The notes beneath the pieces are model-generated. The model saw only the letters and a program-made list of their open reading frames with translations. It was not told where the DNA came from and did not search any database. The position numbers and the translations under genes were made by a program. This document shows positions 16,144 to 46,313 of a DNA stretch of 64,000 nucleotides, in pieces (positions within the stretch are counted from its first letter, which is position 1; each line of letters starts with the position of its first letter). Source of the DNA: a virus (lineage: Duplodnaviria; Caudoviricetes); the IMG/VR virus record IMGVR_UViG_3300012041_000023, positions 6,159 through 70,158 of that record, one strand, 5' to 3'.

Positions 16144-16200
16144 CAGGAGGAGCCTCCGAGCGTGGGGGTGAACTTACGATTGGCTCTCACGCATGAGAGA

Positions 16201-16231
16201 GCACCCGCGATGGCTGGAACCATCCGGGTGC
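16201..16231 (+). promoter_or_regulatory. HNH leader hairpin, copy 1
   Basis: GCACCCG-C-GA-TGG-CTGGAA-CCA-TC-CGGGTGC, upstream of AAGGAG and ATG 16257. Confidence 0.7.
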
Positions 16232-16256
16232 GTGTCACCAGAGAAAGGAGACTCTG

Positions 16257-16847
16257 ATGAGCAACAAGTATATCCCACCCCGTCAAAAGAAACAAGGGTT
16301 CCCTCCCTACGGATCCATCTGCCTGCCCAGCGGGCGATGGTGTCCCCGCAAACTCCACCCCCGTGATGGCTACTTCTACTTCCACACCGGCGGGCGGGTC
16401 GTTCTGGAACACATCTGGCTCTGGGAGCAGTGGAACGGCCGCGCTGTTCCCGACGGGTGCGTGATCCATCACCGAGACGAAAACCGCACGAATAATGCGC
16501 GCCCGAACCTCCAGTGTCTGACGAAGGCCGAACACAACTCGCTTCACAAACTGAAGTGGACCGGTCCCTGTTCGTTTGAAGGGTGTCGTGACAAAGCCGT
16601 ATGCAAAGGTCTCTGCGACCGGCATTACCATCAAGCGTTCCCACCCAAGGCGAAGGGCACGCCCGAGTTCAAGGCGCGGGCGAACGCCCGCGCGAGGGCT
16701 TATGCCGCGCGTCGCGCGGCACAGAAAGCCCTTGTCCAAATTCCGCCTCAAGACGTTAACGGCCAATTACAGCTCCTGCTCTGCCCAGCAATGGCCGAAG
16801 TAGGTCGAATCAGTACCAGTGTCACCTTCCAAGCAACCGAACACTAG
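16257..16847 (+). CDS. HNH endonuclease (HNH_3-like), antisense to the late operon
   Basis: LEHIWLW...VIHHRDENRTNNARPNLQCLTKAEHNSLH. Confidence 0.85.
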   Translation: MSNKYIPPRQKKQGFPPYGSICLPSGRWCPRKLHPRDGYFYFHTGGRVVLEHIWLWEQWNGRAVPDGCVIHHRDENRTNNARPNLQCLTKAEHNSLHKLKWTGPCSFEGCRDKAVCKGLCDRHYHQAFPPKAKGTPEFKARANARARAYAARRAAQKALVQIPPQDVNGQLQLLLCPAMAEVGRISTSVTFQATEH

Positions 16848-17483
16848 GCCGGTGCTCACGGAATCTGGGCACATGCTGGTGGCCGTGGCTAGAACCAGCG
16901 TGGGCGCGGCGAGGGCGACACTCGCGTAGACCTTCACGAGCGCGGTGCCGGAGACCGAGGCATCCGGCTGCACGACTACGTCATAATCCACCCAGGTGTC
17001 GTTCGCGTGCGTGAGGCCAAGCGCCACGGTTTCCGCCGTCCCTGATGCCTTGCGGGTGCGCAGGCGGGGAATCAGCGAGCCCGACAGCTTGTGGATGAGC
17101 AGGAAATCGGTGGAAGGGGTGCCGCCGCTCTCCATGTTGGCGGTGATGGTGGTCGAGAGGATGTTGAACCCACACACCCAGGCGTGATTCGTGGCGTCGG
17201 CATTGCGCACCGAGAAGGCGAACCTGGTTTGCTTGCCGGCCACGAAGCGATGACTCGCCGCGGCCTGGCAGTAGTTGTTTCCGTCAGTTGCGGCTCCCGC
17301 GCCGGCGATCCCGATACAGGCCCGCCCCCCCAGATTCTGCAGGGTAACGGTTCCATTCACGCTCGTGATGGTCCAGGGGTGGAGCGTGATCGGCAGGCGG
17401 TTGAAGTCCATGCCGATGGTATTCATCCGCGAACGAGCCGCTCCCGGGGCCACATCGAACAGGCTGTAGGTCTGTCTACTCAC
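16767..17483 (-). CDS. beta-rich hypothetical virion protein
   Basis: 238-aa Thr/Ala/Gly-rich ORF in the head operon. Confidence 0.55.
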   Translation of the reverse strand: MSRQTYSLFDVAPGAARSRMNTIGMDFNRLPITLHPWTITSVNGTVTLQNLGGRACIGIAGAGAATDGNNYCQAAASHRFVAGKQTRFAFSVRNADATNHAWVCGFNILSTTITANMESGGTPSTDFLLIHKLSGSLIPRLRTRKASGTAETVALGLTHANDTWVDYDVVVQPDASVSGTALVKVYASVALAAPTLVLATATSMCPDSVSTGLVFGCLEGDTGTDSTYFGHCWAEQEL

Positions 17484-17498
17484 CGCGTCCCTCCCTCC

Positions 17499-17876
17499 CT
17501 ACTCTGGATGTTCCAAGCACAGCACCGGCGCCACCGGACGCTCCCCGCCGGTGCAGCCGTAGTCCACGAACAGCACGCTCCGAGCGCCGGGCCCAACGCG
17601 CGGCATCGTCTCATCCTCACGCACCGGGCAGCCGAGCAGCGTGATCGGCGGCATCTCCGAGAGATCCCCGTAGACGTAGCGGCCGTCGCCCGTCTTGATG
17701 CTGATAATCAGCGCCATCGTCTCGGGGTGCAGGATGAACACGCAGTCGCCGCGTTGGCGCTGGTTGTAGGGCATGGCGTAGTAGAGGTGGATCAGGTCGT
17801 CACCCACCATCCAGTCCTGCGCCATCGCCATCACCGCCACCGTGGCGCCCTTCAGCAGGTCCATGCCCCTCCTCAT
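17499..17876 (-). CDS. hypothetical protein
   Basis: 125-aa ORF whose start overlaps the terminase stop. Confidence 0.5.
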   Translation of the reverse strand: MRRGMDLLKGATVAVMAMAQDWMVGDDLIHLYYAMPYNQRQRGDCVFILHPETMALIISIKTGDGRYVYGDLSEMPPITLLGCPVREDETMPRVGPGARSVLFVDYGCTGGERPVAPVLCLEHPE

Positions 17877-19315
17877 GCTCCAAAGAGGAGCAGCCTCCCA
17901 CTCACCGCCAGCTTTGCGAACGCCCCCGATGCCGCATCAATCGCGTCATCATGGGCACCCGAGGGGAAGAGTCGGAACTCCTCCAGCAGATCCGCGTTCC
18001 AGCGCGCCTTGAGGAGCTTCACGTTCCCCGCCTCGCACTGCGCCGCGAAGGGCTGGGCGCGCACTTCCTTGCTGCCCGTCACCCGCTCGGCGTGGATGCT
18101 GTGTCCCGCGAGCAGCCGGACCAGCACCTCCGCCACTTCCTTGCCCGCGGCGCCGGGATCCTGGGGAACCCAGGTCGTCACCTCGCCCGCGTAGCGTTCC
18201 TTGTCCCGCTGGGCGGTCTCCACCAGGCGGGAGTTGCGTTCCCCGGCCGACCACTGCCCGGCGGTGAAGTCCTCCACGTAGAAGAGGTCGCCCGCCCGCG
18301 CCATCAAGATCGACGCACTCCTATCGCCGCCCGCCTGGGTAGCGGCCAGGTCCCAGTACCTCACCCGCCGCGCGGACCTTGGCACCACATCCACGGTCTC
18401 GATCTTGTCGGTGCGGATCGCGCCACCTTCGAGTGGCTGCGGATCGCCCTGATAGAGCGCCGCAAACGACCGAGCCCCCAGCACCGTGCGGATCCCCGCC
18501 AGCGCCGTCTCATCGAAGCGCGCGGGGCAGAGCGCCTGCCCGGGCGCACGTCCCAGGAGGTCGCCGGGCTCGGCCAGCGCCGGCAGCCGCAGCACCGTCC
18601 AGTTCGGGCCGTCTTCGCTGTCAAGGATGCGGCCGGCGAGGTCCATCTCGTGCCAGCGGGTCATGGTGAGCACGATGGAACCGCCGGGCTCGAGGCGGGT
18701 ATACAGGTCGTCGCGATACCAGTCCCACACCCGCTCCTGGTAGGCCGGGCTGTCGGCTTCCTCGCGGTTCTTGACCGGGTCATCGATCAGGATCAGCTCG
18801 GCGCCCTGGCCGGTCACACCCCCGCCCACCCCCACCGCGCGCACGCCCCCGCCTTCGGTCGTCTCCCAGTCCTCCGCGGCGTTGCGCTCCTTGGAAAGCG
18901 GCAGCCCCACCTGCGTGGCCACCCGCCGCGCCTTACGGCTAAACTTGTTCGCGAGCGTCTGGTTGTAGGCGCCGATGATAACCCGCAGCGCCGGGTCCTG
19001 CTCGAGCCTGTGGATCGGATAGCGGACCGTGCCACACTCCGACTTGCCACTCCGCGGGTGCAGGAACAGCATCAGCCGCTTACACCTACCCCACGTCACC
19101 CGGTCCAGGAGACTCGTCAGGATCTGGAGGTGCAGCCAATCCCAGTCCCAGGTCGGTGAGACACTCTGCAACCAGGGGCGGAACCTGGGCGGCATCCCCC
19201 GGAGAATCTGGTCCAGCTCCGCGGCCGTGTCCGTTCCGAACCAGGAGCTCGGAGACGCCGCGCCAGCGGTCGCTGTCCGTGAGGGGCGCGTGCGCCTTGC
19301 CTCGGTCGCTGCCAT
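17873..19315 (-). CDS. terL: terminase large subunit
   Basis: Walker A HPRSGKS, Walker B LILIDDP, nuclease WDLA and HDDAIDA motifs. The start may be downstream of 19315. Confidence 0.92.
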   Translation of the reverse strand: MAATEARRTRPSRTATAGAASPSSWFGTDTAAELDQILRGMPPRFRPWLQSVSPTWDWDWLHLQILTSLLDRVTWGRCKRLMLFLHPRSGKSECGTVRYPIHRLEQDPALRVIIGAYNQTLANKFSRKARRVATQVGLPLSKERNAAEDWETTEGGGVRAVGVGGGVTGQGAELILIDDPVKNREEADSPAYQERVWDWYRDDLYTRLEPGGSIVLTMTRWHEMDLAGRILDSEDGPNWTVLRLPALAEPGDLLGRAPGQALCPARFDETALAGIRTVLGARSFAALYQGDPQPLEGGAIRTDKIETVDVVPRSARRVRYWDLAATQAGGDRSASILMARAGDLFYVEDFTAGQWSAGERNSRLVETAQRDKERYAGEVTTWVPQDPGAAGKEVAEVLVRLLAGHSIHAERVTGSKEVRAQPFAAQCEAGNVKLLKARWNADLLEEFRLFPSGAHDDAIDAASGAFAKLAVSGRLLLFGA

Positions 19316-19640
19316 CCTTCTCCAGCATCTTCAGAGCGATACTCTTATCCGTGAGAATGCCGAACGCGGTCGCCAGTTGGTGGGGCGGCGCGCCGGCGAG
19401 TGAGCCGGGGATCTTCTCCAGCACCAGCGCCGCCACTTCCTCGATACGGGCCAGCATCAGCGTGCGGCCCTCGTCGCGCATCTCCCCGAGCTTCGCCACC
19501 ACGCCCTCGCCGTTCGCCCAGCGACGCAAGGTGCCCCGGGGAATGCCGATCTCCTTCGCGGTGCGCTCCACGTTATCGGCGTTGGCATCGAGGGCCGCGA
19601 GCGCCGCCGCCCGCTCGGCATCGGTGTAGACTCTGGCCAC
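19086..19640 (-). CDS. terS: terminase small subunit (HTH)
   Basis: N-terminal HTH (NVERTAKEIGIPRGTLRRW) directly upstream of terL and overlapping it. Confidence 0.65.
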   Translation of the reverse strand: MARVYTDAERAAALAALDANADNVERTAKEIGIPRGTLRRWANGEGVVAKLGEMRDEGRTLMLARIEEVAALVLEKIPGSLAGAPPHQLATAFGILTDKSIALKMLEKDGSDRGKAHAPLTDSDRWRGVSELLVRNGHGRGAGPDSPGDAAQVPPLVAECLTDLGLGLAAPPDPDESPGPGDVG

Positions 19641-19643
19641 CGG

Positions 19644-19808
19644 CTACCCCGTGATCGGGCCGCCGAACAATTTTAGGCCGGCGATAAAGAGCAAGATGGC
19701 CAGGATGAGACTCGATCCGCCCCAGCCCCAGCGTGCTTCAGCCGGTCCACGGTAGCCCCACCAGCAGCCCCACAGGATGAACAGCACGTAGAACACCCAC
19801 CACCACAT
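19644..19808 (-). CDS. 54-aa Trp-rich two-TM membrane protein (not in the ORF track)
   Basis: Manual translation: MWWWVFYVLFILWGCWWGYRG...LILAILLFIAGLKLFGGPITG. Confidence 0.5.
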   Translation of the reverse strand: MWWWVFYVLFILWGCWWGYRGPAEARWGWGGSSLILAILLFIAGLKLFGGPITG

Positions 19809-19888
19809 GGCTAGTGGAATGGCACACCGTCCTTTCTCGTCGCGAAGGATACGCAGGCACGAAAGGCGAACTTAAAACCGATGATTAT

Positions 19889-19918
19889 GCCCCGCGAGCG
19901 CGGCAAACGCTCCGGGGC
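19889..19918 (+). promoter_or_regulatory. HNH leader hairpin, copy 2
   Basis: GCCCCG-C-GA-GCG-CGGCAAA-CGC-TC-CGGGGC, upstream of AAGGAGG and ATG 19950. Confidence 0.7.
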
Positions 19919-19949
19919 TTGGCCGAAACCTTTGAAGGAGGTCTCGACG

Positions 19950-20504
19950 ATGTCCCGTTCGCCACGCCCCAGCTTCCCCCCTGTCCAGGTCGGTGACCGG
20001 AGCGGTATCCGCACGGTGGTTGCGATCCCGACAGCCAAAAACTATCAGGGCTTTGTAACTCTCAAATGCGCCTGCGGTGCCCGCGCTAATCTCACGATCC
20101 GCGACTTCTACCGCATTCCTCCGACGCGATGCAAAATCTGCCAGCCGAACCGCCGCACCCACGGCGCCACCGGAACCCCTGAATATACTTGCTGGCAAAG
20201 AATGCTTGCTCGTTGCTATCGGCCTAGCCATCATACCTATCAGTATTACGGCGCGAGGGGCATCACGGTTTGCCCTGAATGGCGCAACAGCTTCGATGCC
20301 TTCCTCCGCGATGTCGGCCCGCGTCCATCGCCGGACCTCTCCATCGACCGGATCGACGTCAACGGCAATTACGAGCCCGGCAACGTTCGGTGGGCGAGCC
20401 GCCTGATTCAATCCCAAAACCGACGCCCCAGAACTCCCAAACCAAAGGATGAGGCATCTCGACCACCTTCCCATCAAACGCAAAAAGGCGCCACCGAGGA
20501 CTGA
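19950..20504 (+). CDS. HNH endonuclease (YGxRGI subtype), antisense to the late operon
   Basis: WQRMLARC...YYGARGITVCPEW...SIDRIDVNGNYEPGNVRWA. Confidence 0.85.
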   Translation: MSRSPRPSFPPVQVGDRSGIRTVVAIPTAKNYQGFVTLKCACGARANLTIRDFYRIPPTRCKICQPNRRTHGATGTPEYTCWQRMLARCYRPSHHTYQYYGARGITVCPEWRNSFDAFLRDVGPRPSPDLSIDRIDVNGNYEPGNVRWASRLIQSQNRRPRTPKPKDEASRPPSHQTQKGATED

Positions 20505-20775
20505 TTCCTCGTGTGGCGCCTTGAGCGCTGGCTAATCAATGCAGACCGGACGGATGCCGGTCATTGTATTTTCGGGCGGACCGCGCCTCCCCACCGAGCG
20601 CGGCCCCGTCCGGTTGGGGAGGGCACAGCGCCGGTCTGGTAGACGGAGAGGCGGCCCCGCCCGAAAGGTTACTGGCCGCGTTTGGGCGGGTGGGGCTTGA
20701 TACCCACTCGGGTTTCACCCCGGCGAGGCGTCGTTAGCGTTCTCCCCGCGTCCTTCCGCGGTGCCGCCCGAAAGG

Positions 20776-20847
20776 AAGGGCCTCCCGGAATCTAACCGAG
20801 TCCCTCGCAGTACGCCCGCGAGATGCTGGACATTACAACAAAGCCCT
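20776..20847 (-). ncRNA. 72-nt tRNA-like cloverleaf with a non-canonical anticodon loop
   Basis: Acceptor AGGGCTT/AGGCCCT, D-stem GTTG/CAGC, stem CTCGC/GCGAG with a 9-nt loop, T-arm CTCGG-TTAGATT-CCGGG; no CCA. Confidence 0.5.
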
Positions 20848-20862
20848 ACGGTCTTTCTTGGC

Positions 20863-20892
20863 ATTTTATCGCAGCGGCCTCTTGCGTGTCAA
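20863..20892 (-). promoter_or_regulatory. sigma70-type promoter for the packaging/head operon
   Basis: TTGACA-18 nt-TAAAAT on the minus strand. Confidence 0.65.
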
Positions 20893-21054
20893 GCAAAGCG
20901 CGAATATCCACCCACACCCGCACCCATTTGCGCCGCACCCGCCACGCCTTCACGCGCAGGAGCTTCGTCGCCGGGTCGTAGTGCCCGACGACGCGCCCGG
21001 TCATCTCATCGTGGACCGGAACGAGCGACGGCGGCTCCTCGGGCGGGGGATTGG

Positions 21055-21348
21055 TCAACGCGCGCGCCCCCACGCTTGGGCTGTCTCGTAGTCGGCTGCA
21101 TCCTTCGCGGGCCGCGAATAGCCCGTCAAGCAGTCCGTGCAGCCGCAGTCCACCGGATCCACCCACTCACTCCCGGACAGGAGATCGGCGCGCTGCGGTG
21201 CCAGGAGCCGCCCGTCGATCTCGTCCGCGACAAAACGATAGGTGAAGGCGTGCGCCTGCGGGCCCGCCTGGTCGGCCCTCGCCCGCAATTCCGCCACGTA
21301 GCCCCGCAATCCCTGCTCCAACTTCGCCAGCCGCTCCGCTGCCGTCAA
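21055..21348 (-). CDS. hypothetical protein
   Basis: 97-aa ORF with a CGCTDC motif. Confidence 0.45.
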   Translation of the reverse strand: MTAAERLAKLEQGLRGYVAELRARADQAGPQAHAFTYRFVADEIDGRLLAPQRADLLSGSEWVDPVDCGCTDCLTGYSRPAKDAADYETAQAWGRAR

Positions 21349-21484
21349 CCCTCGTCCTCCCTCTCCAATCCCATCTCCTCGGCTCCCGGCAGCGCCAGCA
21401 CCTCGCGCGCCACCCTCACGAACTCATCGAACGCCCAGTAGGCCCCGTGGAATATCTGTATCCCCCCGTGCTCATAGTAAGGCG

Positions 21485-21721
21485 TCACCCCTCCACCTCA
21501 AACCGCGCCACGAGCGCGCAGTGCCAGTCCTCCCCGGGAACCTCCCGCACCGGCACGCGGTCGATGGCCACCAGTCCGTTGGCCGCGAACCCCCGCACGG
21601 TGCAGCGCGGGGGTTCGGTCGGCACGACGTGGGTGACGATGCCGGGCAGGGGATGCCCGCCCGGCCCGTAGAGACGCACGAAGTCCCAGACGCGGGGGAC
21701 TTCCACTGTATCGGCGGTCAC
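21485..21721 (-). CDS. hypothetical protein, paralog of 22098..22601
   Basis: D(F/Y)V..(Y/H)GP.G..LPGIV...EDW.C.L.ARFE shared by both. Confidence 0.5.
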   Translation of the reverse strand: MTADTVEVPRVWDFVRLYGPGGHPLPGIVTHVVPTEPPRCTVRGFAANGLVAIDRVPVREVPGEDWHCALVARFEVEG

Positions 21722-22098
21722 GACCCCGCCCCCTGATAGATAGGCGGAACGGGATCTGGATTCGCCCACGGATCGTCACCCGAAAGCCCGTCCGGCGTCC
21801 AGTAACCCAGCAGCCCTATCACCACGTTCTGCGCCATCGCATCCGGGTCGAAGTCAACCTCCTTGCCGTTCCGCGTAGACGCCTTGATAGCCCAACGCGC
21901 CGCGGTGCGCACCTTGGCGGCCATCTCGGTGCGGGCGGGGCCCTCGCCCATTCGCAACGTCATCGGCGGCGGTCCCGTAAAACCCTCCGCGTCCGTCTGA
22001 TAAAGCCAATGATCCTCCGGAAGCGGCATGGAGAACACACCGAAGGCCGAGCCGTCAGGTAACACGGTGATAGTGTCGATTGGTCGGGGGACTTCCAT
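21718..22098 (-). CDS. phage hypothetical protein
   Basis: Coupled ORF containing SMPLPEDHWLY and DFDPDAMAQN. Confidence 0.5.
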   Translation of the reverse strand: MEVPRPIDTITVLPDGSAFGVFSMPLPEDHWLYQTDAEGFTGPPPMTLRMGEGPARTEMAAKVRTAARWAIKASTRNGKEVDFDPDAMAQNVVIGLLGYWTPDGLSGDDPWANPDPVPPIYQGAGS

Positions 22099-22601
22099 TA
22101 CTCTTTCTCTTCCTCCAGCTTCGCCGCTTCGAAGCGCGCTTCGAGCGTGCACCACCAATCCTCGCCCTCGGTCTTTTTCGTCGGCAGGTTCGCGAACTGC
22201 TCCAGCCCGTAGGCGGAACAGGCCTGGACCTGGCAGAGGGGAGGACCTCCGGCCACAATCGGTTCCACGACCGCGCGCACGATACCCGGCAACTGCTCAC
22301 CATTGGGACCGTGAACGAACACGTAGTCATAGATGCGGGGGGCGCCTCTCGGCACGGCCGCCTTCGTCGCCGGCGGCAGCGTTTCGGCGAGCATCGGACG
22401 CGTGGTTTCGTCCGTGTCCGTCTCGATCTTCATACCGTAGGCGTAGATCGGCTCCGATTCCCGCTCCTGGGTCTCCGTCTTCGGATGCGAGGGTTCTCCG
22501 GGTGGGGAGGGCGGCGTGGCGGCCGGGGGCACCGCCTTCTCCTCGTGCTTCGGGCTCGCGGTCTTCTGCGGTTGGTCCTTCTTCTCGGTTTTTCCTAACA
22601 T
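22098..22601 (-). CDS. hypothetical protein, paralog of 21485..21721
   Basis: GGAG RBS; shared C-terminal domain. Confidence 0.55.
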   Translation of the reverse strand: MLGKTEKKDQPQKTASPKHEEKAVPPAATPPSPPGEPSHPKTETQERESEPIYAYGMKIETDTDETTRPMLAETLPPATKAAVPRGAPRIYDYVFVHGPNGEQLPGIVRAVVEPIVAGGPPLCQVQACSAYGLEQFANLPTKKTEGEDWWCTLEARFEAAKLEEEKE

Positions 22602-22650
22602 GATGGCTCTCCTTTCAAACGAGGGACGGCATTAGCGCCGCCCCTTTCCC

Positions 22651-23382: not shown

Positions 23383-23678
23383 CGTCTCCCCTTCTTCCGC
23401 ACCCGCGCCTCGTGCTCCATCGCCAGCGCCCGCCCGAGAGGCAGCCCGTCCCCCTCGTCCAGCATCGCCGGTCGGCTGGCGGCGCTCTGCCCCTTCATGA
23501 TCCACTCCGCGATCTGCTGGGCGAGTTCTTCCAGCGTCACCGCCTCCTCCCACTCCCCGCGTCCCCGGCACTCGGGGCAGAGGATGGCGTGTCCCTCCTG
23601 GGGGACGTAGCCGGCACCGCTGCAGTTGGAGCAGCGGTGCTTGACGGCGAGGGTCAGGGTGGGGGTGAGGTCAGGCAT
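23379..23678 (-). CDS. CxxC zinc-finger protein
   Basis: CSNCSGAG...CPECRGRG. Confidence 0.5.
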   Translation of the reverse strand: MPDLTPTLTLAVKHRCSNCSGAGYVPQEGHAILCPECRGRGEWEEAVTLEELAQQIAEWIMKGQSAASRPAMLDEGDGLPLGRALAMEHEARVRKKGRR

Positions 23679-23688
23679 TGGTATCTTC

Positions 23689-24579: not shown

Positions 24580-24662
24580 GCTACCCGCCCTCCACGATCA
24601 TGACGGCGGGATCTTCATGTAGGACATCCCCAGGCACGAAGAGAACTTAACTTCAAGAGATT

Positions 24663-24690
24663 GCCCCGCGACGCTTGCAACGTCCGGGGC
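24663..24690 (+). promoter_or_regulatory. HNH leader hairpin, copy 3
   Basis: GCCCCG-C-GA-CG-CTTGCAA-CG-TC-CGGGGC, upstream of AAGGAG and ATG 24716. Confidence 0.7.
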
Positions 24691-24715
24691 TCGGCACCAG
24701 AAGGAGAAACTTCGG

Positions 24716-25330
24716 ATGCACACTCATTCTATCACCCCTACTCACGCCTGCCTGAACTGCGGACTGCCGATCACCTCTAGACACGCGCGGTTGTATTGCA
24801 GCCTCGCTTGCTACGACGCCACGCGAAACATGCGTGTTCTGGAAAACTTCCTTGCCAAAGTTCGCGTCACCGAAGGCTGTTGGCTTTGGGACGGACTTAC
24901 GGCGCACGGAGGCTACGGGAAGGTGAAGGCCAATGGCAAGACCATCGGCGCACACCGCCTCTCGTGGGAAATCCACCATGGCGAGATTCCCGATGGGCAG
25001 TGCGTCTTGCATAAGTGCGACGTTCCGCTGTGCGTCAACCCCGATCATCTGTTCCTCGGTACGAACCTGGACAACATCGCCGACCGGCATCGGAAAGGAC
25101 GCGATGCTCGTGGCGAAACCAGTGGCCGCCAAACAAAGCCTGAACGAACCGTACGCGGCGAGCGCGTCAACACCGCCAAGCTGACGGCCGCTCAAGTCAC
25201 CCTCATTCGAAAGCGCGTCGCCGAGGATCGCGCCTCGATGGCTTCTCTCGCTCGCGAGTATCACGTGAGCCCGCAATCCATCCAAAGGATTATTGATGGC
25301 CGCTCCTGGAAACACTTGCTTGATCCTTAA
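24716..25330 (+). CDS. HNH endonuclease (HNH_3) with a C-terminal HTH, antisense
   Basis: CWLWDG...AHRLSWEIHHG...VLHKCDVPLCVNPDHL...N...N...AKLT. Confidence 0.9.
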   Translation: MHTHSITPTHACLNCGLPITSRHARLYCSLACYDATRNMRVLENFLAKVRVTEGCWLWDGLTAHGGYGKVKANGKTIGAHRLSWEIHHGEIPDGQCVLHKCDVPLCVNPDHLFLGTNLDNIADRHRKGRDARGETSGRQTKPERTVRGERVNTAKLTAAQVTLIRKRVAEDRASMASLAREYHVSPQSIQRIIDGRSWKHLLDP

Positions 25331-25333
25331 CCT

Positions 25334-26538: not shown

Positions 26539-28347
26539 CTACCTCAACGCCTCCCGTGCGATGACGCCTGCCTGGAGGATGCTGGCGACACCCAGAAGCG
26601 CGGCCAGCACCCGCTCCCAGGGGACCGAAGACACGCAGGCGATCAAGATGCACAGCGCTCCCAGGATCAGACCGAGCAGCGTGAACGTCCAGCCGATGAC
26701 GAGAAAGAGGCAGCCGGGCGCGTCGCGCTTCACCCGCGCCCTCCCCGCTTCTCCCCCGCCTCGAGCCGCTCCACCCGCGCGAGCAGCCGCTCCCAGCGCG
26801 CTTCCTGCTTGGCGAGCCGCTGCTCGGTGCTCTGCGTGTCGTGGCACGCGGCGCGGCGGTTGAGCCTCGCGCTGCGCATCAGGTCCCGGTCGATCTCCGG
26901 CAGCGGCTCCTGCTCCTCGTCCTCCTCGTCGTCAAGCCCGTAGGTGGGGAAGTGGCGATGGAGCACGGCTGCCGCCTCGGGATAGATGCCGTCGAGGAAG
27001 CAGTTGCCGTGGCACAGCTCGCAGGCTCCTCCGCGCGGCTCGCGGCCCGTCCCGAGGCAGCGAATGCAAACGCAGCGGGCCATCAGGTGGGTTCCTCCAG
27101 ACCGCGGCGCTTGGCGTAGTCCGCGCTCCGCTCCAGGGTGAAGACGTAGGATTCGCCTTGATGATCGAAACCGAAGATTGCCATGGGACCGTCCGCGTTC
27201 GGGCCAATGCGGGTGATGTTGCTGAAGCCGACGTTTGACAGGCCCGCGTGCCCAAGCACAACAGCGAGCTGGATCGCCAGCCCGTAGAAGGGGCTCGGCG
27301 GGTTGTCCCACTCGGAAAGCTCAAAGCCCGCGATGCGTGCCAACTCCTGCCAGTCCTGGCGGTCTATCGTCTTCACCCGCGCACCTCCTCCGAACTCCTC
27401 GCCAGCTCCCTGACCTCCTCCGAGCTCCTCAGCATCTCCCACTCCGGTTCGATGGCGCCCGGGTAACGCCTGCGGATGCACGGCGCACACTCCCAGGCGT
27501 CCGGCTCCTCGCGGCTCAACTCGTCCACGCAGAACAGTTCGTCGGGCTCGGCGCCGCAGCGGGCGCAGGCGGTGAGGTGGTGGGCTTCGGCGTAGGTATC
27601 AGCCATCAAGTGCTTCCTTGGCGATACTCCACGGCGGCCACCGTGGGCCGATCCAGTCCGGGGCTGCGTCGTCGCCGCAATCACACTGCTCGTTGTGCGC
27701 CCAGTTCCCCCGCTCGGCGTAGACCGCAAGCGCCGCACGCAACTCCACCACCTCGCGCTCGGGTGACCGATTCTGCCATGCCATCCAGCAATCCATGCAG
27801 CAGCCATCATTGCCGGTCTGCGTTGCCGTCTCGCAGACGGCGCAAGCAATGATGCGCCCTTCAGCCCGGACGCTCTGCGAACGGCGAAGCATAGCGTTCT
27901 CCGTCCGCAGCCCGTCGCACTCGCACTTCAGGCGCTCAATCGTCGCCAGGTCGCGCTCGTCAATGCTACGTAACTGCTTGCCGCTGTCGCTCATCCTTCC
28001 GTCCCCCGCCGCACGACGCGCACCTCCTTCAGGAAGAAGCGGTTGCCCTGTATCTCCGCGCTGTCACCCGTCACGGTGGCCTCCACGTCGTCTCCCGTTT
28101 CCGCGCCGGCCCGCAGCGACCTCGGGACATCGACGGAGAGGACCGTCCCCGGCGGGAGCGGTTCCCCTCCCCAGGTTAGCGGCACCTCGGCGGGGCTGCC
28201 AAGCAGGATGTTCCACAGTCCGGCGATGGCGTTGTCGCACTGCTGGACAACGCCTTCCACGGTGAGCGTCAGAGCGCGTGTGATCTTGGGCATAGTTAGG
28301 TAGGGCAGTGGGCCAGGCTGCCACCCGGCCCACTGCTGGGCTCCCAC
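26539..28347 (-). other. cluster of about six small coupled hypothetical ORFs (TM peptide, CxxC zinc fingers)
   Basis: Chain of overlapping start/stop ORFs (parts of 26539..26847, 26730..27311, 27083..27490, 27373..27849, 27599..27994, 27991..28347). Confidence 0.45.
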
Positions 28348-36107: not shown

Positions 36108-36244
36108 GCAGCACGCCGGGCCCCGTCCCGTAACCGGTAGCGATACCGGTCAAATTCTATCACACTTTGTCAACATTGGGCGAGCAGTAGGTCACGGCCA
36201 AGCCGCAGCGATACCGAAGTTCACCCCACGTCCCGCATCAGGGA

Positions 36245-38102: not shown

Positions 38103-38114
38103 GAGGAGGAGAAG

Positions 38115-39942: not shown

Positions 39943-40058
39943 GTGGCGACCCCCGCACCCGCATCCTGTCCGCCATGCGCGACTACGAGCAAGCGCACCC
40001 GGATGCCGTGCAGAGATTCATCCGGGACAACCCGGACCAAGAAGGAGGAGAACGAGAA

Positions 40059-41150
40059 ATGAACACGACCGCATTGGACCGCGCCGAGCACCTACCCGAG
40101 CGCATCGACCGCTTCCCCGTGAACCCCACCAACCCGGAAGCGGTGCGCCCGCGCTACACGCTGTCCGAGATGGCGAAGATCGCGGAGCTCCTCGCCGCGT
40201 CCGGCTTCTTCCCGGACTGCAAGCAGCAGAGCCAGGCGTTCGCGAAAATCTTGAGAGGCGCCGAGTTAGGGCTGGAGCCCGCCACATCCCTCGCCGAGAT
40301 CCAGATCGTGCAGGGGCGCCCGGTGCTCTCCAGCAACCTGGTCGCCGCCCTGATTCAACGCAGCGGGCGCTACGCCTACCGCATCCGCCGCCACGACAAG
40401 GAAGCGTGCGAGATCGAGTTCTTCGAGCACGGCGAGAGCGTGGGCACGAGCGTGTTCAGCATGGAGGACGCCCGCCGCGCCAAGCTCGCCGGCAAGGACA
40501 TCTGGCAGGCCTACCCCGAGGCGATGCTCTTTGCCCGCGCCATCTCCCAGGGCGGCAAGCGCTTCTGCGGCGCCATCCTGATCGGCGTGTATGTCGAAGG
40601 CGAGATCGAGCCCGACTACCCCAAGCCCGTCGCTCGCCCCGCCATCACGGAGACCGCGCACGGCCCCGTGGACCGCGCCACCGGCGAGGTCCTGCCACCG
40701 CGCACCCCGGCGCTTTCGCCCGCCACTCCCGTCGTCGACGCCGCCGCCCTCGAAGCGCAGAGGCACCACTCCGCCACCGTGCTCCTGCGCAGCCTGCTCA
40801 CCCAGGCGCGCGTCGGGGACTGGACCGCCGCGGACCTGGACCTCGGGCTTGGCACCACGCTCGGCAGCCTGCTCGCGATCGCGGAGGAGAAGCAGCAGCC
40901 CTTCGATGAGATCGACCTCGCGGGCTACGACGCCGCCGAACTGCGCGAAGACGGTCGCCGACTGCGCGTGCGCCTGGCCGAGTTGTCCGCGTCGACCGAG
41001 ACGCCCTCGGGACCGCCGGCGCCCGACGTGCCCACCGGCACCCACTGCACCGCCTGTGGCAAGTCGCTCACGAAGGCACGGCAGACGCTCTGCCAGCACG
41101 CGGGGAAAGCGCCGCTGTGCGTGGAGTGCGACGAAGCGGGGAAGGCGTGA
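40059..41150 (+). CDS. RecT/Red-beta-like single-strand annealing protein
   Basis: GAELGLEP...IQIVQGRP.LS...W..YPEAML.ARA; GGAGGAG RBS. Confidence 0.75.
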   Translation: MNTTALDRAEHLPERIDRFPVNPTNPEAVRPRYTLSEMAKIAELLAASGFFPDCKQQSQAFAKILRGAELGLEPATSLAEIQIVQGRPVLSSNLVAALIQRSGRYAYRIRRHDKEACEIEFFEHGESVGTSVFSMEDARRAKLAGKDIWQAYPEAMLFARAISQGGKRFCGAILIGVYVEGEIEPDYPKPVARPAITETAHGPVDRATGEVLPPRTPALSPATPVVDAAALEAQRHHSATVLLRSLLTQARVGDWTAADLDLGLGTTLGSLLAIAEEKQQPFDEIDLAGYDAAELREDGRRLRVRLAELSASTETPSGPPAPDVPTGTHCTACGKSLTKARQTLCQHAGKAPLCVECDEAGKA

Positions 41151-41671
41151 GCCTCGTCTGCCTGGACCTTGAGACGACCGGGTTCAAGCCCCACAGCGCC
41201 GGCATCGTAGAAATCGGCGCCGTTCTCGTACGGGACGGTGTGATCGTCGGCGAAGGCTTTTCGACGCTGGCGTGGCCCGGCTACGAGATGGTGTCCGGTG
41301 ACGGGCACTGGAAGGCGCTGGAGAAGAACCAGGTGCCGCTCGATCAACTGAAGGACGCCCCGCGGGTGGCGGACGCGATGGAGCAGCTCGCGCGGTGGCT
41401 GGACGTGGGGGACGGAGGGCGGGTGGCGGTGACGAGCTTCAACGTGGCGTTCGACCGCCCGTTCCTCGAGGCGGCGGCACCGTGGGCGTGCGAGCTCCTC
41501 GACTGGCAGGAGTGCCTGATGCAGCGCGCGCAGCGCCACCTCGGCCTCGCCCGCTCGCCGTCGCTCGCCCGTGCCTGCGAGATGCTCGGGATCGCGCGAG
41601 ACGGGGAGCACCGGGCACTCGCGGATGCCCAGGCGGCTGCGCGGATCTGGCTGGCGCTGGAGGGGCGGTAG
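41147..41671 (+). CDS. DEDDh 3'-5' exonuclease
   Basis: LDLETTG, FNVAFD and HRALADA motifs. Confidence 0.9.
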   Translation: MSLVCLDLETTGFKPHSAGIVEIGAVLVRDGVIVGEGFSTLAWPGYEMVSGDGHWKALEKNQVPLDQLKDAPRVADAMEQLARWLDVGDGGRVAVTSFNVAFDRPFLEAAAPWACELLDWQECLMQRAQRHLGLARSPSLARACEMLGIARDGEHRALADAQAAARIWLALEGR

Positions 41672-42065
41672 GGTTGGACCTGGGCGTTTGACAGCGTGCC
41701 GGAATAGTCCGGTACGGGAAGCGCCTCCTTGGGAGAGAGAGGCACTTCCTCCTTCGCTAATCTGCGCAATCGCCCCGGCGCCCGCCGGCTGGGGCATTCT
41801 TTCCGGGAGCACACGATGCAGCTAACCTTTGAGCCCGAAGCACAGACTGCCCCACAGCACACCCACGAGGCGGAGGAAGGCGCCTCCGCCCCCGTTGCGG
41901 CACTGGAGGGCGGGAGGCGCAACAAGAGAGGGACAGCGCCGGTCCCTAGAATGCCCGCGCAACGGCACGTAGAAGCCCGCCAGCGCGTTTTAGACGCCGG
42001 GGTGGGACCTACACCGCACCCGCCAGTTTAGCGCGTCACAGCGCCTTTAGAGAGGAGTTAACCAA

Positions 42066-42305
42066 ATGTCACGCCATAACCTGAAACACCTGGAGCCCTA
42101 CCGCGATACCAAGCCCCCGCCCTCCTGGTCGGCGCTCGACGCGGAATACTATACCGAGTGCAACCAGGACACCCGCGAGGTGCTCTACCTGCGCGACGAG
42201 CCCACGCTGGCCCAGACCACCGCGCGCTGGCTGTGGGGCATCAGCGGCTTCGTGCTGGGGCTCGTCACCGCCACCGTGCTGTTCGCGACGGGAGGCGGCA
42301 AATGA
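42066..42305 (+). CDS. small protein with a C-terminal TM helix
   Basis: GAGGAG RBS; hydrophobic tail. Confidence 0.5.
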   Translation: MSRHNLKHLEPYRDTKPPPSWSALDAEYYTECNQDTREVLYLRDEPTLAQTTARWLWGISGFVLGLVTATVLFATGGGK

Positions 42306-42775
42306 GCCGGCGCCCGCGTGTGGATGAAGATCTGCGCCAACTCATCCTCGCGACCTACGACGCCGGCGCCTCCTACAAGGAGACCGCGGAGCGGCTCGAC
42401 GTCGCCTTCGCCACTGTGGGGCGCATCGTCACCCGCTACGGCACGCCGCGCACCAAGGATGAAGGGCTGGCGCTCTTTAATCAGCGCGCACTCACCGAGG
42501 AGGGGCGTCGGCAGCGGTCCGAGGCCGGCGCCCGCGGCGGGACTGCCTGCCGCGACCGCCACGACGCCGAGTTCTACCAACGCATCGGCCGCAAGGGTGG
42601 ACTGGCCAACCTCGCAGCCCACGGCTCGGAGCACTTCGCCGCGATGGGGAAGCGCGGCGGCAGCGCCACCTCGGCCCGCCACGGACTGGACTTCTACCGC
42701 GAGATCGGCAACCGGGGTGGGGCACGTGTGCGGGAGATGTGCGCCAAGGCGCGGGCGATGGAGGAGCAAGGATGA
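42302..42775 (+). CDS. HTH plus KGG-repeat (GsiB/Con-10-like) protein
   Basis: FYQRIGRKGG, FAAMGKRGG, FYREIGNRGG. Confidence 0.65.
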   Translation: MSRRPRVDEDLRQLILATYDAGASYKETAERLDVAFATVGRIVTRYGTPRTKDEGLALFNQRALTEEGRRQRSEAGARGGTACRDRHDAEFYQRIGRKGGLANLAAHGSEHFAAMGKRGGSATSARHGLDFYREIGNRGGARVREMCAKARAMEEQG

Positions 42776-43116
42776 GAACCGGCATCGATCAGATTGAGTT
42801 TAGCGGCGAAGGTCGGAGCGTCACCCTCGACCGCGAAGGCGCCGACCGCATCACCGAGAACCTGGATCGCCTGAAGCGGCGCACGGATCTCGACTTCGAC
42901 ACTCGCATCTGGGACCGCTTCCGGGACCAGGTCAACGAGCGCTATGCCCAGGTGGCCGGCGGCACGCGGCGCGCGGGGAAGGTCACGCTCTCCGCCACCG
43001 TGGCCGTAGACAGCGACGGTATCCCCTGCGTGAAACTCACCCTCGACGACGCCAGCAAGCGGCTCGGGACGTGGAGCAGCGCGGAGGGCGGGCAGTTGAC
43101 ATTGGAGGGGATCTGA
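42772..43116 (+). CDS. hypothetical protein
   Basis: ATGA coupling with the upstream gene. Confidence 0.5.
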   Translation: MRTGIDQIEFSGEGRSVTLDREGADRITENLDRLKRRTDLDFDTRIWDRFRDQVNERYAQVAGGTRRAGKVTLSATVAVDSDGIPCVKLTLDDASKRLGTWSSAEGGQLTLEGI

Positions 43117-43517
43117 TGACCGCGCCCGTCACGCTTGTGGTGCACTGTGACGTTGCTCGCACCTCTCCTAACGAGCGTGCGAACAAGTGGGAGATGACGC
43201 ACCGCCGCGGCGTGATGCGCCTCGCGGCGCTGCAGGCATTGGCTGCCGCCGGCTACCCCGAGAGCACCGTGCCGGTGCGCCTGGACATCCTCGCGCGACG
43301 CGCTACCGCGATGGACGACGACAACATCGTCGCGGGGAGCAAGGTGGCGAGGGATATTTTGACTAACCGCGCCAAGAACGGCAAAGGGATCGTGCCCGAC
43401 GACACCCGGAAGTGGGTACGCTTGGGAAAAGTGGAACAGGAGATCGCGCCGTGCTGGAAAGGAAGAGAGCAACTTTGCCTGACGGTAACCCCGATCATGG
43501 AGGAGCCCCCGCCATGA
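43116..43517 (+). CDS. RusA-like Holliday junction resolvase
   Basis: MDDDNIVAGSKVARDIL...GIVPDDT pattern. Confidence 0.7.
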   Translation: MTAPVTLVVHCDVARTSPNERANKWEMTHRRGVMRLAALQALAAAGYPESTVPVRLDILARRATAMDDDNIVAGSKVARDILTNRAKNGKGIVPDDTRKWVRLGKVEQEIAPCWKGREQLCLTVTPIMEEPPP

Positions 43518-43732
43518 GCCACTGGACCACGCGCCGCCTGCTGACCAGCCTGGCCGACCTGCTGCAGAATGAGATCGCCACCACACACAGAGACTACACC
43601 ATCCGCCTGAACCTCTCCCGCACGTTCGCGGAACGCATCGCCGCGGCAGCACAAGCGGCGGCGGACTGCTCGGAAATGATTCTCGACGAAGTGCCACCCG
43701 ACGCGGACAACTGGGAGAACGCCCTGCCATGA
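43514..43732 (+). CDS. hypothetical protein
   Basis: ATGA coupling on both sides. Confidence 0.45.
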   Translation: MSHWTTRRLLTSLADLLQNEIATTHRDYTIRLNLSRTFAERIAAAAQAAADCSEMILDEVPPDADNWENALP

Positions 43733-44091
43733 CCGACCACCGCAACGCCCTCCGCATCGAGCTACTCCTGCTCGTGCTTTTCCTGGCCGTCGTGCTCGCC
43801 GTGGCCCTCACGCCGCGCGCCACTCCCGCCCAGGACGACCCCACCACCCCCGTCGTCTCCGCCGCCGCGCGCTATGACGTCGCCGTGGAAACCCTGCGCG
43901 TCCGCACCCGCACGCTCGCCGCCTGCCAGTCCGCGCTGCACATTAGCCTCGTCGAACAAGAGCGCGGGAACCGCATCCGGGCGCTGGCCGGGACGCTCTT
44001 GTTCGCCAAGGGGGAGGAGGACGCCGCGAGGCGCGAGGTGGCGGAAGCGGAGCGGGTGCTGGCTACCGCGCTGCTGGTGGCAGCGCGTTAA
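43729..44091 (+). CDS. N-terminally anchored coiled-coil protein
   Basis: Hydrophobic N-terminal helix followed by a helical region. Confidence 0.5.
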   Translation: MTDHRNALRIELLLLVLFLAVVLAVALTPRATPAQDDPTTPVVSAAARYDVAVETLRVRTRTLAACQSALHISLVEQERGNRIRALAGTLLFAKGEEDAARREVAEAERVLATALLVAAR

Positions 44092-44301
44092 CCCCGTGAC
44101 GGCCGCGCGTGGTCCGAGCCCGTGTGGCCGTCCGTAAACGCCGCACTCTCGCGGCATCCCGTGCAGCCGAAAGGACATCACTCCCACAACAACCTGACTG
44201 ACGCCGGCCCCCGCCACTCGCACGGGAGGCGGGGGGCCGGCACCGATTGCGAGGAGGACTCCCCACCGGCGCCGGCGAACCCCGGAACAGGAGACACCGC
44301 T

Positions 44302-44481
44302 ATGCCCTTTATCGCACGCGAAAATCAACCCGGCTTCTATCTCGCCTGCGCCTTCCTCGCTATCGTCCACGGCTTTCGCGGCGGCTGGTATCAGCTCTCG
44401 TGGGTGTTCGCGGCGCTGCTCTTGCTGTGCGCGCTGGTTAGCTGGCTGGTGGAGAAGGGGGAGCCGAGGGAAACGCCGTGA
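44302..44481 (+). CDS. small two-TM protein
   Basis: GGAG RBS and ATG at 44302; hydrophobic. Confidence 0.45.
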   Translation: MPFIARENQPGFYLACAFLAIVHGFRGGWYQLSWVFAALLLLCALVSWLVEKGEPRETP

Positions 44482-44482
44482 G

Positions 44483-45409
44483 CTACCGCACCGGATAGCC
44501 TTTGCTGTCCAGGATCGCCAGCCCGCCCGCGGAATACATCCGCTTGCCCCACAAGAAGTCGTTGGCATCCACCGTCTGCTCGAAGCGCCGCCATTGGGCA
44601 TGACCATCGGCAAACGTGTAATTGGCGCCGCCGGTGTGCCGGTCGGGCTGGATGTAGGCGATCTGCACGTAGTCCGGCCCCGGCGCCGTGCGGCAGCCCG
44701 CGAAGGCCGCCGCCGCAATGGCCGGCGTCACCGCGTAGACCGCCGTGGTGGTCGGTGGAAACTCCCGGGGATCCTCACCCCTCCACTTCGCCCCGCCCGC
44801 GCTCGCCATCACCGCGTTGACGCTGCGGTGCGATTTGTTCTTGAACCCCGTGCTCTGCTGGTTGCTGGTGTCGTTGACGCAACTAGGCGAGTTCGAGAAC
44901 TCCGCCACGAGGATCGTGGACGCGGGGGCGTCGACCGCACCGAGCGCCACGACGTTCGCGGGATCGACGGAGCGCCGCTTGCGCGGCAAGAGGGCTGCGT
45001 TCACGGTGTAGGAGAGGCGGGGCGCCTGGCTATCGAGGGCGGGTGTCGTGGGCGTCGTGCCGTAAGCGGGATCGGGGGGATTCGTCGGCACCAGTCCCCG
45101 CCCCGCGTCCGAGGGGCAGACGTAGACCTGCTCGCTCTTGACATACGGGCGGATCATGCCGCTCCATTGCACGTAGCCGTTCAGGTCCCCCGCGTTGTTT
45201 TTGTACCAGTAGGCTTGAGGATAAGTCTCGTCGTGGTCCTGGGCATACATCATGACCGCCGTGCCCAACTGCTTCATGTTGGACAGGCACGAGGACTGAC
45301 GCGCCTTCTCCCGGGCCTGGGCGAAGACGGGAAAGAGGATCGCGGCGAGGATAGCGATTATCGCTATCACGACGAGCAGCTCGATCAGGGTGAAGGCGTT
45401 GCGTTTCAT
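44483..45409 (-). CDS. prepilin-type N-terminal cleavage/methylation protein (DUF1559, H-X9-DG C-terminal motif)
   Basis: MKRNA|[44 protein letters not shown]...[14 protein letters not shown]. Confidence 0.92.
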
Positions 45410-45548
45410 GCCGACAGGGTAGCACCGGCGCCTAAAGCCCGCGTTAAAGGAGGCTTAAACGTTGCTTAACCCGTGCCCGTGAGCGGCGAATGTTACGCAT
45501 GTGGGAGGACAGAGACGCAACAAGGTGGAATCTAAAGACAAGGTAAAA

Positions 45549-45575
45549 CCCCGCGATCGTTAGAGCGATCCGGGG
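45549..45575 (+). promoter_or_regulatory. HNH leader hairpin, copy 4
   Basis: CCCCG-C-GA-TCG-TTAGAG-CGA-TC-CGGGG, upstream of AAGGAGG and ATG 45606. Confidence 0.7.
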
Positions 45576-45605
45576 CGTGGTCCGCGCCGAAGGAGGGCGC
45601 AGACG

Positions 45606-46313
45606 ATGGCAGATTCCACGCAACTCACCCTCTTCCCTTCCCTCGTTGGTCAACGGTTTGGCAGCCGCGTCGTCGTAGACCTCGCACCTCGCCAGAAGTC
45701 GCGTGAGCGCGCCGTCGTTCAATGCGACTGCGGCAAGTCGGACGAAATCGACGTTCGCAGACTGTTGGCAGGGAGCGCTCCGCGGTGTCGAAACTGCGCT
45801 GCCAAGAGCAAGCCAATGCTGCACGGTGGGTACCGCGATGGGAAGGCATCTCCGGAATACAGTTCCTGGCGGGCGATGCTGAAGCGAACCGAAAACCCCA
45901 ACCATGAAGCCTATGAACGCTATGCTGGACGGGGAATCCACGTCTGCCCGGAATGGCACGACTTCAAGGTGTTTCTTCGCGATGTCGGACCTCGACCGAG
46001 TCTTGAGTATTCGCTTGAACGGATCGATAATTCGCTTGGCTACCATCCAAGCAATGTCAAGTGGGCCACATCGGCTGAACAAAATAACAACACCCGATCT
46101 AATCGCCTCCTTGAACTCAACGGACGGACGCAGACACTTGTCCAATGGGCGCGCGAACTCGGAGCAATACCAGAGACGATCACGCAACGATTAAAACATG
46201 GGTGGTCTGTCAAGCGCGCACTGACCACCCCCGTGCGACCCATAAAGCGCCAGGTGCCTCAACCACCAAAGTCTACAACCCAAACCGTACCGGATATCCC
46301 AACGCCTATGTGA
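45606..46313 (+). CDS. HNH endonuclease (YxGRGI subtype), antisense
   Basis: SWRAMLKR...YAGRGIHVCPEW...SLERIDNSLGYHPSNVKWAT..EQNNN. Confidence 0.88.
   Translation: MADSTQLTLFPSLVGQRFGSRVVVDLAPRQKSRERAVVQCDCGKSDEIDVRRLLAGSAPRCRNCAAKSKPMLHGGYRDGKASPEYSSWRAMLKRTENPNHEAYERYAGRGIHVCPEWHDFKVFLRDVGPRPSLEYSLERIDNSLGYHPSNVKWATSAEQNNNTRSNRLLELNGRTQTLVQWARELGAIPETITQRLKHGWSVKRALTTPVRPIKRQVPQPPKSTTQTVPDIPTPM

Follow-up and report, generated by a model that had tools for sequence, protein, structure and literature searches.

The stretch analyzed here is a 64-kb window (64,000 nucleotides [nt]; positions 6,159 to 70,158) of the 70,158-bp Caudoviricetes virus record IMGVR_UViG_3300012041_000023 from IMG/VR, which has a G+C content of 66%. 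It contains four open reading frames (ORFs) for HNH endonucleases, each preceded by a hairpin; we refer to each ORF with its leader as a cassette (Table 1). The initial annotation had described the hairpin in four copies upstream of HNH ORFs, and a pattern search agreed with this. The pattern CCCGCGA-N(6-20)-TCCGGG had four matches in the window (16204, 19891, 24665, and 45550), all on the plus strand, against a chance expectation of 0.3, and none of 100 shuffled sequences reached four matches. The 3' end of the hairpin, designated hairpin 1, lies 25, 31, 25, and 29 nt upstream of the ATG of the HNH ORF in copies 1 to 4, respectively, and a GGAG-type Shine-Dalgarno (SD) sequence is located in between in all four. 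As annotated, the inner stems differ and yet pair, and the compensatory outer stem ACCCG/CGGGT was seen in copy 1. The statement that the loop core of copy 4 is a reverse complement is literally true, but nothing was found that gives it meaning. Profile matches assigned ORFs 16257 and 24716 to Pfam HNH_3 and ORFs 19950 and 45606 to phrog_374/phrog_3377, in line with the two HNH subtypes proposed. Minus-strand genes flank all four sites; they include a nuclease gene, TerL, and a pilin-like gene. In every copy, hairpin 1 is followed by a second hairpin that encloses the SD.

A fifth copy of the hairpin was found outside the window, at G000:C1:2844-2868 (+), with GAACTTAA upstream and AAGGAGG and then an ATG downstream. 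Its ORF encodes a 348-amino acid (aa) HNH protein of a third subtype (phrog_2255) and adjoins the major capsid gene. Since searches with the HNH_3, HNH, and phrog_374 profiles revealed no further HNH genes in the 70-kb record, the link between hairpin and HNH gene holds in both directions: five of five hairpins precede HNH genes, which belong to three subtypes, and five of five HNH genes have the hairpin. All five cassettes are antisense to phage operons. The ends of the element were set by where similarity among the five copies stops. The left end lies a few bases to the left of a conserved AGGA sequence, and the right end is the stop codon, which abuts or overlaps the neighboring minus-strand gene. 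No conserved structure was detected 3' of the cassette ORFs; a terminator-like hairpin is present there at copy 2 only. Seventeen TerL relatives were fetched for comparison with insert-free genomes. They had TerL alone in common with the virus and did not share the flanks, so the element ends could not be set by comparison. Contigs from a second sediment sample have the same cassettes, and none skips an insert. A megablast search with 15 kb against GenBank phages gave no match.

The cassette was then followed beyond this virus in IMG/VR. A scan anchored on hairpin 1 gave at least 118 loci, and the inner stem was paired in 81 among the matches listed. When only the second hairpin and the start codon served as anchors, the scan gave 92 loci, corresponding to 80 unique leaders. 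Although hairpin 1 was absent from the latter search pattern, it was present in all 80 leaders, and its outer stem covaries among them (CTCCCG/CGGGAG, CCTCCG/CGGAGG, CACACG/CGTGTG, and others). Pooling of both scans yielded at least 125 unique leaders, which were analyzed further. In a combined scan for GAACTTA and the hairpin, L006, L007, and L009 were chance matches in which the stem is missing, and only L008 was real. The results support the proposal that the hairpin defines an element family, here one of self-contained nuclease cassettes. Cultured Arthrobacter phages have the cassette, too, upstream of genes annotated as HNH (ArV2 gp26, Persistence gp41, BillyTP, Tiff81, RadFad, and others), and the bacterial genomes that contain it are almost all from Actinomycetota (Arthrobacter, Glutamicibacter, Microbacterium, Pseudoclavibacter, and Mycobacterium sherrisii). 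A covariance model built in this analysis, R1, scored unseen copies from cultured phages and bacterial genomes with 60 to 86 bits. The five copies of the virus scored only 33 to 50 bits, showing that they are divergent family members. R1 detected no sixth copy in the window; a weak match at 48714-48778 (E 0.05) is a canonical promoter region and not a hairpin copy. Rfam gave no matches in the window at gathering thresholds, and at E<=1 the five loci (15 kb, both strands) yielded only a chance Tymo_tRNA-like match (E 0.11) located away from the leader. The hairpin family is large and missing from Rfam, which answers a question raised by the initial annotation.

The genes downstream of the 125 leaders are diverse. 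A single His-Me/HNH similarity cluster accounts for 71 of them (HNH_3, 31; HNH, 24; HNH_5, 20; Endonuclease_7, 6), another endonuclease family (phrog_16945) for 7, and a LAGLIDADG nuclease for 1. The remaining ORFs include two tyrosine integrases, a rolling-circle Rep, a helicase, a methyltransferase-like protein, and many small ORFs without a family. Non-nuclease genes, among them one for an ArdC-N-like protein, are headed by the cassette at, e.g., L092, L105, L021, L109, and L008. The cassette is conserved independently of the ORF and prefers nucleases and other DNA-acting, potentially harmful enzymes. According to a simple codon-position heuristic used to call gene orientation, approximately 80% of the cassettes in the wider family are co-oriented with their neighbors. 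Two arrangements were also seen in the family. A contig of a Glutamicibacter metagenome-assembled genome (L235) has two copies (1107-1189 and 2552-2632) 1.4 kb apart, with R1 scores of 25.5 and 85.9 bits. In Arthrobacter phage Persistence (L230; record positions 27605-28067), the cassette and its HNH gene open a rightward operon at a divergent switch region, after a 460-nt intergenic gap.

Next, we asked which strand carries the structure. In a set not selected on hairpin 1, the strand opposite the nuclease gene gave the better fold of this hairpin for 69 of 79 copies. A neutral hairpin finder, which treats A·C and G·T alike, counted 827 Watson-Crick pairs in hairpin 1, together with 128 plus-strand A·C pairs, which correspond to G·U on the minus strand, versus 15 plus-strand G·T pairs. 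The A·C cases occupy internal helix positions, directly after the bulge, with Watson-Crick pairs on either side. In the aligned family, wobble pairs numbered 117 on the minus versus 11 on the plus strand for hairpin 1, and 29 versus 8 for hairpin 2, each counted in a set not selected on the hairpin in question. The minus-strand two-hairpin structure was paired in 94.9% of the cells versus 76.3% in shuffled alignments; none of 500 shuffles reached this value, and slid controls gave 36 to 47%. Changes on both sides were found for 17 of the 18 pairs, in agreement with the claim that the hairpin covaries independently of the ORF. Plus-strand folds of hairpin 2 were no better than those of shuffled sequences (mean z -0.7); at least half of the SD is paired in these folds in 51% of the copies, and the AUG is fully paired in 33%.

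The sequence following hairpin 1 also differs between strands. The 8 nt after the hairpin contain on average 3.9 U residues on the minus versus 1.1 on the plus strand, with 60 to 66% U at positions 2 to 4 of the minus-strand tail and approximately 50% at positions 7 and 8. With its 12- to 13-bp stem and U-rich tail, hairpin 1 on the minus strand fits an intrinsic (Rho-independent) terminator. It thus looks like the minus-strand terminator that the initial annotation had set against its own proposal; however, it is specific to the cassette and not generic. For each of the five virus copies, the minus-strand fold consists of two clean hairpins, the first of which displays the anti-SD in its loop (z -3.1 to -6.2), and in four of the five, this fold is more stable than that of the plus strand, by 2.4 to 9 kcal/mol.

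A further signal was detected inside the ORFs. The motif ANNNTA, for which the background is 0.4% per position, is located exactly at +8 to +13 of the ORF in 88 of the 125 leaders, and within +6 to +18 in 109 (87%). It is followed by CC. When read on the minus strand, the box is GGTANNNT, preceded by GG or TG and located inside codons 3 to 6, and it shares the form of the sense -10 boxes (GGTAGAAT, TAGACT), which end 12 to 13 nt before hairpin 1 in 59% of the leaders. Of 37 unrelated protein clusters, 29 have the antisense box, which imposes the N-terminus M-x-[KDEQN]-x-T; Thr is present at residue 5 in 73 of 125 proteins. Because the box is independent of the protein family, the constraint is non-coding, and its position suggests that a minus-strand transcript starts at about the start codon. 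In this virus, the box is present in copies 1 and 3 (Table 1) and in copy 5 (TAAGAT at +16 to +11, minus strand). Taken together, the pairing asymmetry, the U-rich tail, and the -10 box most likely place the function of the hairpin on the strand opposite the nuclease gene.

Table 1. Features of the four cassettes in the window. Folding energies and z scores are for the minus strand unless stated otherwise; R1, score with the covariance model.
Feature	Position	Strand	Basis and details
Copy 1, putative sense promoter AGGA-N18-GAACTTA	16148..16176	+	Motif search
Copy 1, predicted antisense RNA	16193..16261	-	-36.0 kcal/mol, z -6.2; plus strand -30.1; R1 50.4 bits
Copy 1, anti-SD hairpin	complement of 16236-16259	-	
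Copy 1, predicted terminator hairpin	complement of 16201-16231	-	Tail UCUCUCAU
Copy 1, -10 box TATACT	16267..16272	-	Codons 4-6, +16..+11; shifted inward by one codon relative to the family norm
HNH endonuclease 1, 196 aa	16257..16847	+	Pfam HNH_3, 1.2e-13
Copy 2, putative sense promoter AGGA-N18-GAACTTA	19846..19874	+	Motif search
Copy 2, antisense-strand two-hairpin unit	19881..19954	-	-37.5 kcal/mol, z -4.8; plus strand -30.1; R1 39.9 bits
Copy 2, predicted terminator hairpin	complement of 19889-19918	-	Poor U tail
Copy 2, anti-SD hairpin	complement of 19922-19948	-	
HNH endonuclease 2, 184 aa, phrog_374 type	19950..20504	+	phrog_374, 4.7e-43
Copy 3, putative sense promoter AGGA-N18-GAACTTA	24621..24649	+	Motif search
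Copy 3, predicted antisense RNA	24655..24720	-	-30.6 kcal/mol, z -3.1; R1 32.6 bits
Copy 3, predicted terminator hairpin	complement of 24663-24690	-	
Copy 3, anti-SD hairpin	complement of 24694-24719	-	
Copy 3, extended -10 box TGaTAGAAT	24726..24731	-	Codons 4-6, +16..+11
HNH endonuclease 3, 204 aa, with C-terminal helix-turn-helix	24716..25330	+	Pfam HNH_3, 2.6e-13
Copy 4, putative sense promoter AGGA-N18-GAATCTA	45506..45534	+	Motif search
Copy 4, predicted antisense RNA	45540..45610	-	-35.2 kcal/mol, z -4.4; plus strand -36.9; R1 43.9 bits
Copy 4, predicted terminator hairpin	complement of 45548-45576	-	Tail UUUUACCUU
Copy 4, anti-SD hairpin	complement of 45580-45604	-	
Copy 4, degenerate -10-like box TGGAAT	45613..45618	-	Canonical place, +13 to +8; G replaces the key A
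HNH endonuclease 4, 235 aa, phrog_3377/374 type	45606..46313	+	phrog_3377, 4.9e-50

Upstream of the hairpins, the three occurrences of GAACTTA reported are the only ones in the window, and copy 4 has GAATCTA. GAACTTA belongs to a longer, bipartite motif, AGGA-N18-GAAYYT(A), of which it forms one half and in which the spacing is constant. A search for AGGA-N(17-19)-GAAYYTA returned four occurrences in the window, at the cassettes only, versus 0.1 expected. The 70-kb record as a whole contains five occurrences of AGGA-N18-GAAYYT(A), one per cassette and all on the plus strand. Between the motif and hairpin 1 lie 10 to 22 nt. When GGTGAACTTAA was searched with two mismatches allowed, no enrichment elsewhere in the window was seen. 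Our best guess is that AGGA-N18-GAAYYT is an unusual sense promoter for a non-housekeeping sigma factor. It resembles the Bacillus sigma-H consensus (AGGA…GAAT), a resemblance we treat as a lead only. GAACTTA was also considered as a sigma-70 -10 box, a sigma-54 site, and an extracytoplasmic function (ECF) -35 element with the -10 element inside the hairpin; these readings were discarded, since critical bases or spacings do not suit every one of the five copies. The virus encodes a sigma-70-family protein of approximately 230 aa at G000:C1 ~1215-1916 (-) (locus L248), outside the window and among structural genes. It matches Sigma70_r2 (4e-11) and has a region-4-like C-terminus, and is a candidate reader of the motif.

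Several details of this region and of other promoters were recorded. Copies 2 and 3 share CAGGCACGAA in the spacer of the bipartite motif (19853-19862 and 24631-24640, +) despite their different nuclease subtypes. Copy 1 has an extra small hairpin, CTCTCA-CGCA-TGAGAG, at 16184-16199 (+), between GAACTTA and hairpin 1; at the corresponding place, the spacer of copy 5 is 12 nt longer. The canonical promoter region mentioned above contains a perfect sigma-70 promoter, TTGACA-N17-TATAAT, at 48688-48716 (+), 15 nt before ORF 48731 in a divergent region adjoining an 800-aa minus-strand gene. Its presence shows that the host uses canonical promoters.

These features led us to the following model, which we consider probable, if by no means secure: a cis-antisense RNA of approximately 65 nt, composed of an anti-SD hairpin and a terminator, represses the nuclease in a manner similar to IS10 RNA-OUT. 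In the proposed cassette, a sense promoter is followed by a 5' untranslated region (UTR) of approximately 60 nt and by the nuclease ORF, which would harbor an opposite-strand promoter (TANNNT) in codons 3 to 6. The two putative promoters face each other at a distance of approximately 85 to 90 bp, and the cassette head comprises approximately 110 bases. The sense promoter, in this virus presumably the bipartite AGGA-N18-GAAYYTA, would give rise to the nuclease mRNA. The antisense promoter would point back to the UTR and produce the RNA of approximately 65 nt, starting at about the start codon. The first part of this RNA is predicted to be a 5- to 10-bp hairpin whose loop displays the anti-SD CUCCUU, followed by a short linker, and the second part the opposite-strand form of hairpin 1, a 12- to 13-bp hairpin (7 bp, a bulged G, 5 to 6 bp, and a tetraloop) with a U-rich tail. 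Such an RNA could pair with the whole 5' UTR, the SD, and the AUG of the nuclease mRNA, so that ribosome binding would be blocked or cleavage triggered. As an outcome, a potentially toxic selfish nuclease would be held at a low level; convergent transcription may add interference.

Several observations weigh against this model. No conserved -35 element for the antisense promoter was seen in the family. The box of copy 4 has a G in place of the critical A, and the copy 2 ORF has no -10 box. The U tail is short (approximately four of eight positions) and is poor in copy 2, and a simple terminator scanner called none of the hairpins 1 in the window. Copy 4 folds 1.7 kcal/mol better on the plus strand. 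No RNA runs containing the virus were found; two runs labeled 'RNA?' probably derive from DNA, and their coverage is confined to conserved parts of TerL and methyltransferase genes from other organisms. Moreover, the sense mRNA by necessity carries the complementary hairpins, so a sense-strand role may coexist. Finally, the cassettes of this virus are antisense to phage operons, minus-strand read-through transcripts are already present, and the hairpin could act on these instead.

The structure may alternatively be a sense leader, in which hairpin 1 is a 5' stem-loop of the mRNA serving stability or as a protein site, hairpin 2 masks the SD and the AUG as in T-even phages, and the antisense RNA is irrelevant. 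There is precedent for such a leader in the T4 genes for I-TevI/II/III, segB, and Aeh1 mobE (PMC2988022). The sense -10 box frequently ends 12 to 13 nt before hairpin 1, which would make the hairpin 5'-terminal on the mRNA; in plus-strand folds, a conserved CRTG after hairpin 1 pairs with part of the SD and in many cases with the AUG; and copy 4 is slightly more stable on this strand. However, internal plus-strand A·C (minus-strand G·U) is approximately 10 times more common than plus-strand G·U, the plus-strand folds of hairpin 2 do not exceed those of shuffles, and a sense leader explains neither the fixed TANNNT in codons 3 to 5 across unrelated proteins nor the A-rich run before the hairpin. 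We therefore regard it as unlikely. The earlier proposal of a structured RNA in expression control fares well in that the RNA level is the most plausible one; its sense-strand "leader" version is disfavored by the wobble pair counts of both hairpins, and the -10 box and U tail frame an antisense transcript of approximately 65 nt.

An insulator function, by which the minus-strand hairpin would terminate or process phage transcripts antisense to the nuclease gene and TAAGTTC would restart transcription for the next phage gene, appears still less likely. It would suit the orientation of all five cassettes in this virus, the fact that the reverse complement of GAACTTA/GAATCTA (TAAGTT/TAGATT) is a TANNNT in all five copies, and a minus-strand promoter (TTGACA-N18-TAAAAT, 20892-20863) that reads through copy 2 toward TerL. 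It does not suit the wider family, in which the predominant co-orientation with neighbors would leave no such transcripts and in which no enrichment of minus-strand TANNNT upstream of hairpin 1 was seen, and the fixed 18-nt spacing between GAAYYT and AGGA is better explained by a plus-strand bipartite promoter. Least probable is a DNA-level signal, i.e., a hairpin that forms in single-stranded DNA for cassette mobility or recognition. The tolerance of G·T on one strand would be in keeping with such a hairpin, too, and the cassette is clearly portable among unrelated ORFs. On the other hand, the 3' ends of the cassettes have no partner structure, no HUH or transposase gene is present, homing requires no hairpin, and a promoter box at a fixed distance, a U-rich tail, and an anti-SD loop are features of RNA. 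With no matching 3' structure, no HUH or transposase gene, and cassettes present upstream of integrase, Rep, and helicase genes as well, we found no support for the guide-like element or the mobilization hairpin that the initial annotation had considered.

The minus-strand promoter upstream of TerL may also be relevant for copy 2. A phage transcript runs antisense through this copy, where a strong terminator would cost TerL expression; read-through toward TerL may thus explain the decay of copy 2. TerL itself (17873-19315, minus strand) is approximately 1.5 kb away from the apparent promoter. Between them are antisense HNH gene 2 and two stretches (19316-19867 and 20505-20892) without a convincing ORF, and the alignment of TerL to its PHROG profile begins only at profile position 273. 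In one of the TerL relatives (IMGVR_UViG_3300029799_000004, L222:3460-4265), the TerL match is split by approximately 800 nt at a point corresponding to window position 18662, which may reflect an intein, an intron, or a nuclease insert. The host of the virus is unsure, though the cassette family is actinobacterial. A pilin family that may be typical of Planctomycetota or Armatimonadota is a pointer only.

More tentatively, with slightly less than even confidence, we propose that the cassettes give rise to a class of small RNAs that is widespread among phages and uncatalogued. Each homing endonuclease, and some integrases and Reps, would receive its own cis-antisense RNA from a portable module with two promoters, and the N-terminal residues of dozens of unrelated proteins would be dictated by the antisense promoter in codons 3 to 5. 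For the virus studied here, we suppose a rewiring of the module to the non-canonical sense promoter AGGA-N18-GAAYYT, possibly read by the phage sigma factor, so that a constitutive antisense RNA would gate a sigma-timed nuclease. To our knowledge, only a few T-even genes provide examples of how free-standing homing endonucleases are restrained, and there the restraint relies on sense hairpins and late promoters. A cis-antisense RNA would be a different restraint, of the kind found in IS10 and type I toxin-antitoxin systems, that travels with the nuclease gene. It would explain why unrelated nucleases have a leader in common and why M-x-[KDEQN]-x-T recurs at their N-termini. The cassette recurs in hundreds of phages of high-GC bacteria; if the model is correct, it would help annotators to recognize cassettes, add a new family to Rfam, and offer phage engineers a compact portable off-switch. 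The cultured Arthrobacter phages make the antisense model directly testable.

In a literature search, we did not find antisense RNA described for homing endonucleases. The homing endonuclease genes of T-even phages (I-TevI, I-TevII, I-TevIII, segB, and Aeh1 mobE) have a sense hairpin that sequesters the ribosome-binding site and an embedded late promoter (PMC2988022). Like these genes, the cassettes combine an own promoter with RNA structure at the ribosome site that would keep expression low. Unlike in T-even phages, the conserved pairing fits the opposite strand, and the putative promoter points backward from inside the ORF. A promoter inside the hairpin, as in the T-even genes, was not found: the sense -10 box is upstream of both hairpins, and there is no plus-strand box between hairpin 1 and the SD. 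Ends similar to those of IS200/IS605 were not found either, as conserved structure after the ORFs is missing and the ORFs encode His-Me nucleases, not an HUH transposase. The 50-bp motif of Gordonia phage Vardy is a different thing, namely a leaderless TATAAT promoter (PMC9671010).

Closer parallels are found among cis-encoded antisense RNAs. In the SymE/SymR system, a cis small RNA opposite the 5' end of the gene for a potentially toxic, nucleic acid-cleaving protein represses its synthesis (PMC1891008). With SymE/SymR and with type I toxin-antitoxin systems, the cassettes have only the geometry in common; the protein families are unrelated. The geometry also equals that of IS10, whose 69-nt antisense RNA-OUT prevents ribosome binding and has complementarity to the part of the transposase mRNA where translation is initiated (PMC5006887). 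In contrast to IS10 with its DDE transposase, the cassettes carry a homing endonuclease gene or, in some cases, one for an integrase or Rep, the carriers are phages of high-GC bacteria, and the RNA is predicted from sequence alone. It has two hairpins with the anti-SD in the first loop, its overlap spans the whole UTR, and sequence similarity to RNA-OUT is lacking. Nevertheless, as in RNA-OUT/RNA-IN of IS10/Tn10 and in art200 of IS200, the enzyme gene of a selfish element is flanked at its head by two face-to-face promoters, here putative, and is matched by a predicted structured antisense RNA of approximately 65 to 70 nt with a stable stem-loop, complementary to the 5' UTR, the SD, and the start codon.

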